Assembly: GCA_044226625.1 (NCBI GenBank)
Contig: JBGAGQ010000079.1
Location: forward strand, 1-27,753
Direction of reading: 5' to 3'
DNA from: Thermoanaerobaculia bacterium
Lineage (GTDB): Bacteria; Acidobacteriota; Thermoanaerobaculia; Multivoradales; UBA5704
Length of the DNA: 27,753 nucleotides
Shown: positions 21,271 to 24,773 of the stretch, piece by piece
Layout: each line of letters begins with the position of its first letter
Position numbering within the stretch: the first letter of the stretch is position 1
Program-made: the position numbers and the translations under genes
Notes under the pieces: generated by a model
The model's input: only the letters and a program-made list of their open reading frames with translations
Databases searched by the model: none
Told to the model about the DNA's origin: nothing

Positions 21271-24200
21271 CTATTTGGCTCCCGAAAACTCAGCCAAAAC
21301 GACTTTGGCCTCAGCTAATCCTGGTGAGCGTAGCTCCGTTAGACATGCAACCGCACGTTCGGCAAAAGGACGTCCCTCTTCGCTGTGCCCCTGCCGCACA
21401 AGAGCTTTCGCTAATCGCCAGCAGTCGTCTGCGATCAACTCCTTTCGACCCACATCTTCAGCGAGTCTCAATGCCTCCCGCGCGAGGCGCTCAGCCTCCG
21501 ACCACTCCCCACGGTCCAAAGCGAGCTCGGCGATGTTGCCGGTATACGTCGCAACGCTCTCGGGCTCAGGCAAATGGCTCGCAATTGCAAGAGCATTTCG
21601 ATAATAGTTTTCCGCCTCCTCGAGACGATTTGATTCGCGGAGAACCTCCGCCAATGCATTAAAGCAACTGGCGACAGGAAAGCTGTCGGACTTGATCCCT
21701 CGCCAAAGATCGAGCGCCTCTTGGAGCGCAATGATCGCCCCCGGGTAGTCTCTGCCCAACCGGCATCCTTGGCCACGCAAGAAAATTGCCAGTGCATGTT
21801 CATGTGCACCTGCATCCGGCGTCTTCCCCCAATGGCGAGCGGCGCGGTTAGCACATGTTAAAACCTCTGCGGACTGTCCGCGTAAATAATGGCCATAGCC
21901 AATGTCATAGGCTCTGCGACCAGCATTCATGAAATCTTCAGCACGTTCAGCACTGGTCTCGGCTGCTTCGCTCAGAGCAAGTCTGATATCCCAACGCCCG
22001 GAAGAATCAAGGAATCTATACAGTGCATCACATGTCTCCTGGAGACGGCGGTTGTCTCCAGAAATGAGCACCGGAAGTGCAGCTGCAATTTTGGGCCATG
22101 ATTCTTCCAGCATGGGAAATCGGGAAAACTGGCGATACCCGTTCATTGTCGCTAGTTGATGCACCTGTTCTGCTAGACGCTGACCACTGATTTCAACCGT
22201 GCGGGGACACGTGCGCCGCAAGAATCGAGCGGCCATAGGAGGAAGCAACCAGGTGCGGGCCTGCTCATCTTCGATTAGCAAAGCTCGATCTCGAAGGCCG
22301 TCGAGGGCGGTATCGACAGCCGTCGGACTTAAGCGAGTCAATGGGATTAGCCAATCAACAGGCGCCGGTCGGTCGAAATAAACCAAAGCCGATAATACGG
22401 CCGCTTCTTCAGCCGAAAAGGTTTCGGCTAGATCCCTAAAGGCAAAGTCAAGGGGGTCATTCTTGACATCTTGTTTCTCACGCCGATGGGCTTCCTGTAG
22501 ACGCGACACAGCTTCAGACACAGTGCGGCAGCGACCAGTGATCCTACCGAGCTGCCCAGCAACCCACGTGAGCAATAAGGGATTTCCACCAGTTTCTGCA
22601 TAGAGGCGATCACGATCAATCTTTGAAAGGTTGGCAACCGGTTTCCAACGCCTTCCCAACTCGATTAGCAGCAGGTCCGCTGCCTCATGCTCTAAGCGGT
22701 CTAGCCGAAGGTGCGCTGCGGTCGAAGCGTACGCACTGTATCGACTTGTGACTATAGCGCGACAACCTGGAGGCAAGGTCTCCAGCAGCTCGAATGTCCT
22801 TGCCTGCTCCCTTTTATTAAAGGACTCCAGATTGTCTAAAACCAAAAGGGCGCGGTAGTCTGCAAGTGCATGGCGTACAAGCTGAGGCTGCATTTCAGGT
22901 ACAGCTTTTGGTATGTCATCACGACTAAGCGCCCGACCAATCTCGCTCAGTAGCGCATAGAAGCTCTCCACACGAGCGGCTTCCAGCTTTCGTTCGCCCT
23001 CAGGGAGCAGCTCGCTGACCTTAGCCGTGAACCAGAGCTTAAGAGGAAAGTGTTCAACTGGAGCTCTGTGGGCTGCTTCCAAGGCTAAGGCCGTCTTTCC
23101 TACTCCTCCCGGGCCGTCCAAGACTACTCCCCAGCTCCGATTTTCCGGCCGAAGGTATTTCGCGACCTTCTCTAGTTCCTCTTTTCTCCCGAAAAACGGC
23201 CGACGTGGAAGTAACATTGATCGGATGCCAGGAGCTCGATGGAAGCCGACGGAATGTTCGCCGTTAACGCGTCGACTCCGTTTTGAATTCCGAGGTCTCG
23301 TAACAACGGATACTGGCGAGGTTCCCTCATCCTTTCTTAGCTCCGCATGCTCGTGGTCGGGAATAAACCGCCATCGTCCTGTCGCCGATGTCGCGAGGCG
23401 CGGCCAGAGGCGAAGATGAGCGCCTGTGCCGGAAAAGTCGATGCGGCCTGCTGAATATCCGTGAACTCGCCTTATCCTTGGTGGTTCCCCAAATCTCTCC
23501 ATCCCAAAAACGGAACATCCCTGGCATCGGTGCACTGCATGCGGGGAGCCACCAAACTGTAGGTAAGTGATTTCGGGCTCGTGTTGGTGGCCGAAAAGAT
23601 GAACCGCAAATCGTCCTGGCGGCGCGATTTCCGATCCCCCATGTTGCTGAGCCTGGGGAGTCAACCAGCGAGGTCCGTGATGGGTTAGCAAGATGGCAAT
23701 GTCGTGGCTATTCGACCATACATCAACACCTTCGCCGCATACAGCCTGAACCTGCCGAGCATCCCACACCAAATGTCCTTCATAGTCTCCGCCCGCCAGT
23801 TGAAGAAAGGAGGTGTTCAAACCAATCACGCCGACCTGTCGATCTCCGGCCTCTAGCGTGACAGAGTAGTCTCCTGGTAATGCTCCGACTCTAATGCCAG
23901 GAGGACGGTGGGGAGCTTGTTCCCACCACTGGCTATAGGAGGCAAACGCGCCATCTATCACGCGTCTGTAGCCTCCTGTGGATTGATCCCAGAACTTTCC
24001 TTCGACTCGCTGATACCCATCTGGATCCAATAGGGTGTCGACAGCCGGGTTGTCTTCCATAGGATTCGGGCGATACAGATCGTGATTCCCAGGTACCGCG
24101 AGCAAGGCAATTTGGGATGACTGCAGCTCGCAAAGCCTCACCCATAAAGGCTTTAGCACCTGCTCCTGCATCGCTTGGAACTGGGCTGTTTCACCTGATT

Positions 24201-24369
24201 GGACAAGATCTCCCGTAAACACAACAGCATCCCAGGGTCCACACCTTTTGTGGAGATCTGAGAGACTGTCTAGGAAGGGCTCGCGTAGCGTGGGCCACAG
24301 GCAGTCCTGGCCCTTTAATCCGTAATGGAGATCTGTCAAGTGCAGCCAAGAAAAGGAGCCATTGCGCAT
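21271..24369 (-). CDS. Calcineurin-like metallophosphoesterase-NB-ARC/STAND ATPase-TPR protein (NLR-like)
   Basis: Phosphoesterase motifs TDLH, TGDLV, PGNHD, THH and GHQH. NB-ARC motifs FFGRKEE, Walker A GPGGVGKT, Walker B LLVLDNLE, IVTSR and GGNPL. C-terminal TPRs (ALQEALDLWR, AENYYRNALAI, AERLAREALRL). AGGAG RBS 9 nt upstream. Confidence 0.92.
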   Translation of the reverse strand: MRNGSFSWLHLTDLHYGLKGQDCLWPTLREPFLDSLSDLHKRCGPWDAVVFTGDLVQSGETAQFQAMQEQVLKPLWVRLCELQSSQIALLAVPGNHDLYRPNPMEDNPAVDTLLDPDGYQRVEGKFWDQSTGGYRRVIDGAFASYSQWWEQAPHRPPGIRVGALPGDYSVTLEAGDRQVGVIGLNTSFLQLAGGDYEGHLVWDARQVQAVCGEGVDVWSNSHDIAILLTHHGPRWLTPQAQQHGGSEIAPPGRFAVHLFGHQHEPEITYLQFGGSPHAVHRCQGCSVFGMERFGEPPRIRRVHGYSAGRIDFSGTGAHLRLWPRLATSATGRWRFIPDHEHAELRKDEGTSPVSVVTRPRNSKRSRRVNGEHSVGFHRAPGIRSMLLPRRPFFGRKEELEKVAKYLRPENRSWGVVLDGPGGVGKTALALEAAHRAPVEHFPLKLWFTAKVSELLPEGERKLEAARVESFYALLSEIGRALSRDDIPKAVPEMQPQLVRHALADYRALLVLDNLESFNKREQARTFELLETLPPGCRAIVTSRYSAYASTAAHLRLDRLEHEAADLLLIELGRRWKPVANLSKIDRDRLYAETGGNPLLLTWVAGQLGRITGRCRTVSEAVSRLQEAHRREKQDVKNDPLDFAFRDLAETFSAEEAAVLSALVYFDRPAPVDWLIPLTRLSPTAVDTALDGLRDRALLIEDEQARTWLLPPMAARFLRRTCPRTVEISGQRLAEQVHQLATMNGYRQFSRFPMLEESWPKIAAALPVLISGDNRRLQETCDALYRFLDSSGRWDIRLALSEAAETSAERAEDFMNAGRRAYDIGYGHYLRGQSAEVLTCANRAARHWGKTPDAGAHEHALAIFLRGQGCRLGRDYPGAIIALQEALDLWRGIKSDSFPVASCFNALAEVLRESNRLEEAENYYRNALAIASHLPEPESVATYTGNIAELALDRGEWSEAERLAREALRLAEDVGRKELIADDCWRLAKALVRQGHSEEGRPFAERAVACLTELRSPGLAEAKVVLAEFSGAK

Positions 24370-24514
24370 GGGCGAGCACTCCTAAAATGACTCTGGGCGG
24401 TTTGACCGTACCGATTATCGAACTGTTCAGGTGCGGCCGCCCCAAACACACCTCTTCTCTTGGCCGAGCGCGCCGCCGTCCGTACTCGAACGGCGGTCCG
24501 TACATCGCTGACAA

Positions 24515-24613
24515 TCAAATAGACATACCGACCGGATCTATAATTGAACCACCGTCTACCTGCATGCCGCCAACGGGATCGATGACTGTGCCACCATCGG
24601 ACATGAATTCCAT
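24515..24613 (-). CDS. 32-aa peptide with two DGGxxIDPVG repeats
   Basis: MEFMSDGGTVIDPVGGMQVDGGSIIDPVGMSI*. AAGGAG 7 nt before the ATG. Below the ORF-track cutoff. Confidence 0.75.
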   Translation of the reverse strand: MEFMSDGGTVIDPVGGMQVDGGSIIDPVGMSI

Positions 24614-24641
24614 CTCAGTTCTCCTTGGAGAGTTATGTCGT

Positions 24642-24773
24642 TTAGCCGACGGGGTCAATCCCGTTGCCAGCCTCTGAAATTGGGTGGTACGGGGCGTCTC
24701 CCTCCAGATTTAGATTGCCCGAAAACCTAAATCCACGCCTCAAGATAAGTAACATGGCCCAAAATAAGGTCAT
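24642..24773 (-). CDS. 43-aa peptide with hydrophobic N-terminus, ending in EAGNGIDPVG
   Basis: MTLFWAMLLILRRGFRFSGNLNLEGDAPYHPISEAGNGIDPVG*. GGAGG about 10 nt before ATG 24773. Shares IDPVG with the adjacent peptide. Confidence 0.7.
   Translation of the reverse strand: MTLFWAMLLILRRGFRFSGNLNLEGDAPYHPISEAGNGIDPVG

Follow-up and report, generated by a model that had tools for sequence, protein, structure and literature searches.

A stretch of 27,753 nucleotides (nt) of contig JBGAGQ010000079.1 (positions 1 to 27,753) from a Thermoanaerobaculia bacterium (assembly GCA_044226625.1), here called the window, carries on its minus strand two very short open reading frames (ORFs) directly upstream of a gene for a large NLR-type protein. 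An initial annotation had read the two encoded peptides as cognate ligands of this NLR. Comparison with related loci led us to a different best explanation, namely that the ORFs probably form a conserved peptide cassette whose regular partner is a membrane protein with two transmembrane (TM) helices and a TPR-like domain, and that the NLR is a replacement for that partner. The features of the locus are as follows.

24642..24773, minus strand: peptide A (pep43), 43 amino acids (aa) and stop codon, read as an ORF, with a Shine-Dalgarno (SD) site GGAGGG at 24783-24788
24645-24674, minus strand: motif EAGNGIDPVG of peptide A, at the C-terminal end of pep43
24515..24613, minus strand: peptide B (pep32), 32 aa and stop codon, read as an ORF, with an SD site AAGGAG at 24621-24626
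24569-24598 and 24527-24556, minus strand: motif copies DGGTVIDPVG and DGGSIIDPVG of peptide B
24370..24514, minus strand: spacer between peptide B and the NLR gene, 145 nt, 61% G+C, with a G+C-rich hairpin without a T-run
21271..24369, minus strand: NLR-type gene, 1032 aa, assigned by Pfam, its start preceded by TAGGAG

The coordinates, gaps and SD sites of the initial annotation and its three GxxIDPVG copies were all confirmed in the sequence. A gap of 28 nt separates peptide A from peptide B, both on the minus strand, and a scan of the window DNA with the motif pattern gave matches at 24528-24553 and 24570-24595, both in peptide B. The spacer contains no terminator-like site on the minus strand, and its fold is not unusual (z-score -1.13). 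In the protein collection pep32 is present as a called gene (P0121).

The 43-aa peptide starts with a hydrophobic stretch, MTLFWAMLLIL, continues through a linker and closes on EAGNGIDPVG; pep32 has no hydrophobic leader and carries the motif twice. The IDPVG codons of the three copies (ATT GAC CCC GTC GGC, ATC GAT CCC GTT GGC and ATA GAT CCG GTC GGT) differ only synonymously, and the residue x of DPxG is V in all three. Across the whole genome, G..[ILVM]DP[ILVMA]G matches 47 times in 13.2 million six-frame residues, with three of the matches lying here within about 130 nt; this is the sole motif cluster in the genome, no second pair being found in short frames. The cluster is not a product of chance.

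Codon usage was then compiled over 45 motif instances from 25 loci. Asp is encoded by GAT in 28 and GAC in 14 instances, Pro by CCG in 8, CCC in 18, CCA in 7 and CCT in 12, and Gly by GGT in 13, GGA in 7, GGC in 15 and GGG in 3. Such free synonymous variation indicates selection on the peptide and not on the DNA, which bears out on a wider set what the initial annotation had argued from three copies. An SD-like site lies 3-16 nt upstream of every chosen start of the cassette peptides. From these comparisons, the two small ORFs are probably translated genes of a peptide cassette conserved in Thermoanaerobaculia (Acidobacteriota).

The opposite view, that the small ORFs are not genes and that the motif repeat is chance or an element acting at the DNA or RNA level, could appeal to their very short length, to the absence of pep43 from the protein collection and to a 17-nt inverted repeat (I6) linking the motif regions. 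We regard it as extremely unlikely, considering the amino-acid conservation with free synonymous change over 25 loci, the conserved SD sites, an A/B architecture kept in 23 loci, the rarity of the motif and an Rfam search of the region that matched no family. The inverted repeat itself (24566-24582 / 24655-24671, 82% complementary) joins the end of pep43 to the first motif of pep32. Its origin is the near reverse complementarity between the codons of N-G-I-D and those of I-D-P-V, and, within what the varying residues permit, it is not conserved at other loci.

Relatives of pep32 are scarce in protein databases. A word-index search with a 47-aa in-frame stretch returned the window's own 32-aa protein as its sole match, and HMMER with pep32 over 1.84 billion representatives gave three matches at E <= 0.001, these being pep32 itself, P0123 and P0122. 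The first of the two others, a 106-aa metagenomic ORF with four motif copies, is a true relative; P0122 was rejected as a low-complexity AESGAVVDPIAEL repeat protein. Further multi-copy peptides were seen in a 53-aa ORF at L104:3549-3710 (two copies), at L139 (two copies, GGTIDPWG..GGGIDPY) and at L156 around 3000-3230, where three FDPNG copies lie behind a signal peptide. Together with P0123 these look like multi-core precursors.

Genome loci provided a fuller picture of both peptides. Peptide A is 39-65 aa long across the family, and pep43 aligns with 23 peptide A sequences of related loci (alignment A4), giving the consensus MxWLLL...DGGTxIDPxG. The start resembles M-[TAI]-W-L-L-L, with no basic residues ahead of the hydrophobic stretch and often basic residues after it; the stretch is short, about 12-15 residues across the family and 10-12 in pep43, which likewise lacks a basic n-region. 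A linker rich in Pro, Ser and Ala leads to the end, G-x-x-[IVL]-[DE]-P-x-G, and the motif forms the exact C-terminus of peptide A in 18 of the 23 loci. Peptide B, at 10-27 aa, is hardly more than Met and the motif (for example MGGTTIDPDGNKS, MASSGLDPWG and MGGSGIDPVA), the window copy being one that carries the motif twice. Within the genus, peptide B starts with MDSEGG, MESDGG or MNLDGG.

The cassette regularly lies tail to tail with (convergent to) a gene whose product, some 260-360 aa long, has two TM helices, a long helix and a six-helix, TPR-like C-terminal domain. When genomes were searched with a profile built from four members (A2), the protein turned up in 33 of the order's 300 and in 29 of the family's 91, and nowhere in the genome of the window (G000). 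In 23 of the 30 loci fetched, the convergent strand carries both peptide A and peptide B no more than about 500 nt from the membrane-gene stop, and the stops of cassette and membrane gene are 9-153 nt apart. Clustering of the membrane-protein loci revealed no other large gene common to them, and no conserved transporter, maturase or peptidase. A second DNA pattern (A-stop-SD-B) recovered 6 of the 23 known cassettes and is too insensitive to count cassettes without a membrane gene; its other matches pointed to a second motif context, described below.

The membrane protein, a hypothetical protein of Thermoanaerobaculia in its source annotation, matches no family in Pfam, NCBIfam or PADLOC. An AlphaFold2 model based on 26 sequences (pLDDT 90.4) shows long helices at 4-44 and 53-124, which hold the two hydrophobic spans, and six helices at 136-260. 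The nearest shapes in Foldseek are 14-3-3 proteins and TPR domains, including the LGN and KLC2 TPRs, the TPR-like protein 2hr2_B (TMt 0.61) and 5l0y_C, the Sec72 TPR with the Ssa1 C-terminal peptide (TMt 0.53, E 0.076). We call the C-terminal domain TPR-like because of these neighbours and an LNNL-type repeat signature read in the alignment. A protein atlas search reached a best score of 0.86, with TPR-named clusters below 0.9, and provides leads only. For the two-TM module, a Ninjurin identity was rejected, a single weak match not being repeated across members. A complex prediction that paired the C-terminal domain (G004 residues 185-358, A5) with the 30 C-terminal residues of the G004 peptide A scored 0.01 against a mark of 0.32, without controls, and is evidence neither way on binding.

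Three loci illustrate the behaviour of this protein family. At L149:940-2073 (plus strand) the family's TPR-like C-terminal domain follows an N-terminal TIR domain (PF13676, E 1.1e-8) in place of the two-helix membrane part, with no motif peptides nearby; by analogy with the logic of conflict systems, the fusion fits a sensor module joined to alternative effectors. At L142 (G005:C7), a same-genus genome has a G-type cassette (x = G) and a membrane protein from a clade unlike that of its congeners, and this mismatch suggests that the module moves between genomes. At L130 (G089:C43) the membrane gene contains in-frame stops (one TGA, one TAA) and both peptides are intact (x = G in A and B), possibly another case of peptides outliving their partner.

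Peptides A and B vary in step at the residue x, which is identical between them in 17 of 23 loci. The shared states are D-D in 11 loci, W-W in 2, G-G in 2, V-V in 2 and I-I in 1; L129, counted among the D-D loci, has the variant motifs IIPDG and IEPDN, and one further locus pairs I with V. The membrane-protein tree separates the W, G, V/I and D states into different clades; the window peptides belong to the V/I type, which G002, G004 and G006 also have. The count is taken over genomes that are kin and is not a statistical test.

The size of peptide A (39-65 aa), its single hydrophobic helix and a convergent partner so close that transcripts could overlap recall type I toxin-antitoxin systems (Hok, TisB, Ldr), whose peptides, some 50 aa long, likewise have one hydrophobic helix and lie next to a convergent gene. 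Peptide A could then be a small membrane toxin that convergent transcription, or else peptide B and the membrane protein, would restrain, with the motif serving assembly. This is very unlikely: the most conserved part is not the hydrophobic helix, which is short, but the hydrophilic motif at the C-terminus, which peptide B, itself not hydrophobic, has as well, and the window cassette persists without a convergent gene. Unlike type I toxin-antitoxin systems, the cassette has no antisense RNA that we know of.

We next turned to the NLR. Pfam bears out the phosphoesterase-STAND-TPR architecture that the initial annotation had assigned to it. A calcineurin-like phosphoesterase domain (Metallophos) covers residues 9-265 (E 1.9e-12; nt 23575-24345), followed by a STAND NTPase (nt 22546-23199) matching AAA_16 at 391-532 (E 1.9e-8) and NB-ARC at 396-608 (E 1.6e-7), and by a TPR region at about 874-1012 (nt 21334-21750) with TPR_12, TPR_10 and TPR_MalT matches at about 874-974. 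More than 100 full-length homologues exist, and the best 120 matches are nearly all 1020-1060 aa long, with 51-68% identity over 85-100% of the length; sources include Acidobacteriota, Longimicrobium, Contendobacter, Variovorax and Thiodictyon. In a 23-member alignment the metal-binding residues D13, H15, D54, N95, H96, H230, H261 and H263 and the Walker residues G419, P420, G421, G422, G424, K425, D512 and N513 are invariant. The family (window and L009-L047) is conserved end to end across several phyla, sensor TPRs included. Immune-type NLR sensors usually diverge fast, and full-length conservation of this kind is unusual. One string of the window NLR, LLDPDG (about residues 113-118, window about 24016-24033), recalls the peptide motif; the family consensus there is LLEKDG, and the string is probably due to chance.

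Among PADLOC models, the NLR matches PDC-S60 (E 6.2e-13, residues 9-267 only), Effector endonuclease (E 2.6e-8, N-terminus) and TPR (E 0.0018), and no Avs or bNACHT model. The 1032-aa protein nevertheless has the effector-NTPase-repeat sensor layout of antiviral STAND or bacterial NLR-like systems (Avs, bNACHT), with Walker A and B intact. It differs from them in matching no named model, only the candidate PDC-S60 at its N-terminus, and in belonging to a family unusually conserved over its full length across Acidobacteriota, Gammaproteobacteria and Planctomycetota. We know of no Avs or bNACHT system that uses adjacent self-encoded peptides. Calcineurin-like phosphoesterases are listed among the N-terminal domains of bacterial NACHT proteins in a part of 10.1101/2022.07.19.500537.

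The initial annotation had proposed scanning NLR homologues for motif-bearing small ORFs, and had held that their absence would contradict a peptide-gated NLR; no cassette of such peptides was found in 33 genome and 20 metagenome loci. A single-protein contig scan had found no relative, and 80 genome loci, 33 of them full-length, were fetched with alignment A1. In the 800 nt upstream of the NLR on the same strand, 78 of the 80 lack [ILVMF]DPxG, and the two matches sit inside long frames; a narrower motif gave two matches, again both in long frames, in the 1.0 million translated residues of these loci. A loose test (small frame, motif near its end, either strand, anywhere) yielded scattered single matches in 7 of the 33 full-length loci, with no peptide pair and none adjoining the NLR start, and scored 22 of 30 membrane-protein loci. 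The cassette is thus carried by 0 of the 33. From metagenomes 80 NLR loci were found and 20 examined, namely 18 of the 20 best-ranked (L159-L176) and the short fragments L181 and L224, with 50-73% identity over the matched part; the cassette was absent from the 900 nt upstream in all 20, two loose matches being unlike the motif. Clustering of the 33 full-length loci found no conserved neighbour gene. On these comparisons the NLR appears to be a stand-alone, ordinary-looking member of the bacterial NLR-like kind, from a family unconnected with the peptides, and among the 53 NLR-family loci and the window the adjacency to peptides is so far a single case.

The surroundings of the locus indicate how this adjacency may have arisen. 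Three further features are relevant.

About 21134..25000, no strand assigned: low-G+C island between two conserved genes, delimited by composition and blastn
25004..26905, minus strand: thiamine-pyrophosphate (TPP) enzyme gene, assigned by Pfam, flanking and outside the system
19128..21164, minus strand: S9 family peptidase gene with PD40 repeats, assigned by Pfam, tblastn and clustering, flanking

On the minus strand the order is therefore TPP enzyme, 43-aa ORF, 32-aa ORF, 1032-aa ORF and S9 peptidase. The island has 50-58% G+C versus 63-73% in the flanks, and no direct repeats bounding it were found. Against five same-genus loci, blastn homology reaches the TPP stop codon (25001-25004) on one side and 21116-21133 on the other, with none in between.

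The TPP enzyme was looked up in 20 relatives, being 78-85% identical in 7 same-genus genomes, and the site was fetched in six of the same genus. In two of them (G001, G007) the TPP and S9 genes lie about 115-125 nt apart and the site is empty. In two others (G004, G006) the insert between these genes holds motif peptides and the membrane gene, without an NLR; as in the window, a peptide with a hydrophobic start and the motif at its end comes first and a very short second peptide comes next. The G004 insert encodes a peptide ending in DGGSVIDPIG at its stop codon, then MDSEGGSIIDPIG and a stop codon; that of G006 encodes a peptide ending in DGGTGLDPIG plus 8 aa, then MESDGGSILDPVGKEG and a stop codon; the convergent membrane proteins have 358 or 261 aa. 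In G002 the cassette and membrane gene adjoin the S9 gene, and in G003 the membrane gene adjoins S9 at a contig end. The membrane gene thus occupies the site in four same-genus genomes, with peptides seen in three of these, and only the genome of the window has the cassette and NLR without the membrane gene. These relatives, with the peptides at the same site and no NLR, speak against the tie to the NLR made in the initial annotation, as does the regular occurrence of another protein as cassette neighbour (23 of 30 loci). No remnant of the membrane gene was detected in the window by tblastn with three membrane proteins (E > 0.8). In the relatives the cassette and membrane gene are also low in G+C (48-56%), and the shared low G+C of the window genes is therefore no proof that peptides and NLR arrived jointly.

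The simplest history would be that the genus carried A, B and the membrane gene between the TPP-enzyme and S9-peptidase genes, that in the ancestry of this genome an NLR gene of a kind that usually stands alone was acquired horizontally and took the place of the membrane gene, and that the peptides stayed behind as an orphaned cassette. Adjacency to the NLR is most likely secondary, a replacement at a variable site or hot spot. The S9 peptidase was rejected as a dedicated processing enzyme, since its gene adjoins the site in the presence and absence of the island alike and is missing from the cassette loci of other genera.

A second context for the motif was found in other genera of the family. 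At L109-L114 (genus g5) and at L155 and L157 (genus g17), genes encode Sec-signal proteins of roughly 95-110 aa whose C-terminal ends carry the motif, as GGSCIDP[VLM]G with a few residues and Cys, or as LIDPNG or GIDPEG at the stop codon. Each precedes a co-directional gene for a cytoplasmic TPR protein of about 350-470 aa; the g5 pairs occur two or three in tandem, and a Peptidase_M50B-like gene follows them in at least one locus (L111). The TPR proteins of g5 are homologues of those of g17 (31% identity, E 3e-30), and no specific likeness links the g5 protein to the C-terminal domain of the membrane protein (hhalign probability 0.95%). At L157:3-884 (minus strand) the TPR protein starts with MSWYATCIDPGAEDWC, a motif-like string, directly after the secreted protein ending in GIDPEG.

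Motif-ending peptides thus adjoin TPR or TPR-like proteins in three architectures, which raises the odds of a peptide-TPR relation in general but is no proof of one for the NLR. TPR proteins are common in the Thermoanaerobaculia genomes examined, and the three TPR parts are not specifically alike. Of the peptide-TPR link in the initial annotation, the general part, a recurrence of motif peptides beside TPR or TPR-like proteins in the family, is retained, and the specific link to this NLR is not.

In its strongest form, a ligand role of pep43 and pep32 for the NLR TPR domain would mean that the cassette has been re-wired from the membrane protein to the NLR. The peptides are intact, lie directly upstream on the same strand with SD sites and are low in G+C like the NLR, the NLR sits exactly where the canonical partner would, and the motif, which elsewhere in the family has three kinds of TPR or TPR-like protein as neighbours, could be a ligand for TPR domains at large. 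We nonetheless judge such re-wiring improbable. The peptides occur in 0 of the 53 NLR-family loci examined, the NLR stands alone elsewhere and the arrangement is a single instance; its TPR region shows no specific likeness to the C-terminal sensor domain of the membrane protein (hhalign probability 0.1%, BLASTP E 0.43); and the low G+C, seen also in the cassette and membrane gene of relatives, is no sign of joint transfer.

Export of the peptides is another possibility: they could act as a pheromone, a two-peptide bacteriocin or a product resembling ribosomally synthesized and post-translationally modified peptides (RiPPs), with the membrane protein providing immunity, processing or reception and the NLR unrelated. 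The hydrophobic N-terminus and conserved C-terminal unit of peptide A resemble RRNPP pro-peptides, the joint variation of x between A and B resembles pherotypes, and multi-copy forms are known (two in pep32, two in the L104 ORF, four in P0123, three at L156); the Sec-signal proteins of other genera, ending in the motif ahead of TPR proteins and an M50B-like peptidase, also fit. Peptide A, on the other hand, has no positive n-region or clear cleavage site, its basic residues following the hydrophobic stretch (A4), and peptide B is leaderless. The cassette has no transporter, maturase or peptidase as a conserved neighbour, no RiPP precursor model in NCBIfam matches the peptides, and positive-inside reasoning would put the TPR-like domain of the membrane protein on the cytoplasmic side. 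We consider export unlikely, if less so than re-wiring to the NLR.

Several known systems share elements with the cassette, RRNPP-type peptide-TPR signalling being the closest analogue. RRNPP systems are described, in parts of PMC10075063 and PMC9765709, for Firmicutes and their mobile elements. Like RRNPP(A) systems (Rap-Phr, AimR-AimP, Rgg-SHP, PlcR-PapR), the cassette loci have a short ORF adjoining a TPR-protein gene and a conserved unit at the C-terminus of the small protein; the variant residues resemble pherotypes, and tandem duplication of the unit in some pheromone propeptides is described in a part of PMC11343458. The cassette differs in occurring in Thermoanaerobaculia (by the source names of the relatives), not Firmicutes, in having two peptides, one leaderless, and in its usual partner, a convergent two-TM protein and not a helix-turn-helix or phosphatase receptor. 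Neither the NLR, which matches only generic TPR models, Metallophos and NB-ARC, nor the membrane protein showed a relation to an RRNPP receptor family, and the co-occurrence of receptor and propeptide fails for the NLR family (0 of 33 genome and 0 of 20 metagenome loci). Membership in RRNPP fails on account of receptor family, taxon and co-occurrence. The g5 and g17 pairs of Sec-signal and TPR proteins have a layout like that of RRNPP systems, but in Acidobacteriota.

NLR-associated amyloid signalling motifs (BASS) recur at the C-terminal end of the neighbouring protein and the N-terminal end of the NLR. The window NLR starts with MRNGSFSWLHLTDLH, has its phosphoesterase from residue 9 and carries no terminal IDPxG, its sole motif-like string, LLDPDG, being internal; it differs in this from BASS, as outlined in a part of 10.1101/2020.01.06.895854, and resembles it in having a short motif in a small neighbouring gene. 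A last comparison is with TPR proteins that clamp C-terminal peptides. The TPR carboxylate clamp binds the EEVD end of Hsp70 and Hsp90. The three-repeat TPR-like domain of the membrane protein, together with a motif that is often the exact C-terminus, recalls Hop, CHIP and Sec72, but the likeness is weak (E 0.076) and there is no sequence relation.

Neither the motif peptides nor their partner membrane protein turned up in literature searches, among them searches with the motif strings. The A/B cassette with its two-TM TPR-like partner therefore appears, as judged from sequence, to be new as a genetic module, matching no curated family, and the NLR itself to be of a known kind. In the window, peptide A and peptide B with its own SD site and the same x are present, and the convergent two-TM gene is absent.

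Several observations weigh against a conserved cassette with a membrane-protein partner and a secondary NLR. The window peptides are intact, with good SD sites and a duplicated B motif whose differences are synonymous only; unlike long-orphaned genes they show no decay, which leaves room for continued function. The order in the second context, a motif peptide upstream of and co-directional with a TPR gene, is the same layout as peptides then NLR. The pairing is also incomplete: A and B disagree in x at 5 of 23 loci, and seven of the 30 membrane-protein loci have no clear A and B pair, in that L146, L147, L149 and L152 lack A and B peptides, L132 has near the membrane gene only an atypical B-like ORF without Asp-Pro, L139 has an atypical two-copy peptide 268 nt from the membrane gene on the convergent side, and L153 is cut by a contig end and shows no clear A and B pair. 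The genomes searched are a sample, one per species, many of them incomplete. As to the fold, every Foldseek match of the membrane-protein model in the PDB has E > 0.01 and is weak, and a SLATT identity of the two-TM module was rejected, with 1 of 26 members matching at E 0.051 against a cut-off of 41 bits. Taking these points into account, we hold it likely that the cassette is real, that the membrane protein is its canonical partner and that the NLR is secondary.

The peptides are probably ligands of TPR-like sensor domains. We tentatively propose a docking mechanism, which we rate as possible but below the genomic interpretation. Positive-inside reasoning would place both ends of the two-TM protein, including its TPR-like domain, in the cytoplasm. 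The N-terminal helix of peptide A would tether it to the membrane and leave its tail on the cytoplasmic side, and the shared motif, often a free C-terminus, would dock in a groove of the TPR-like domain. Peptide B would be a soluble form acting as competitor or co-ligand, the residue x would set the specificity of pairing, and peptide occupancy would control the two-helix membrane module. A bolder extension, which we think has a small chance of being correct, treats GxxIDPxG peptides as portable self-made ligands of TPR-type sensors in Thermoanaerobaculia, here re-wired so that the NLR is held off or switched on.

Apart from the system itself, an ORF at 26779-27753 (plus strand) runs past the window edge; it has a signal-like start and at least 4 repeats of about 70 aa, with the pattern ...D[IL][KR]CY...LNHLNP...QLCVPV.KN....

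For the NLR field the locus holds a caution, in that adjacency in a single genome hinted at a peptide-gated NLR and 53 homologous loci contradict it. Were the portable-ligand proposal true, the partners would be a two-TM effector, cytoplasmic TPR regulators or an NLR, depending on lineage, and a re-wired NLR would be the first in bacteria controlled by a genetically linked peptide; the window holds the one natural locus where such peptide-to-NLR re-wiring could be tested. The conserved cassette with its membrane partner, if true, would mean that Thermoanaerobaculia carry a compact three-gene module made of micro-proteins of 10-65 aa, a co-varying C-terminal motif and a two-TM TPR-like sensor. 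It would add to the few cases in which genes of 10-16 codons are shown by comparison alone to be under protein-level selection, and its natural variants, with x = D, W, G or V/I, would offer a simple test bed for the specificity of peptide-TPR recognition.

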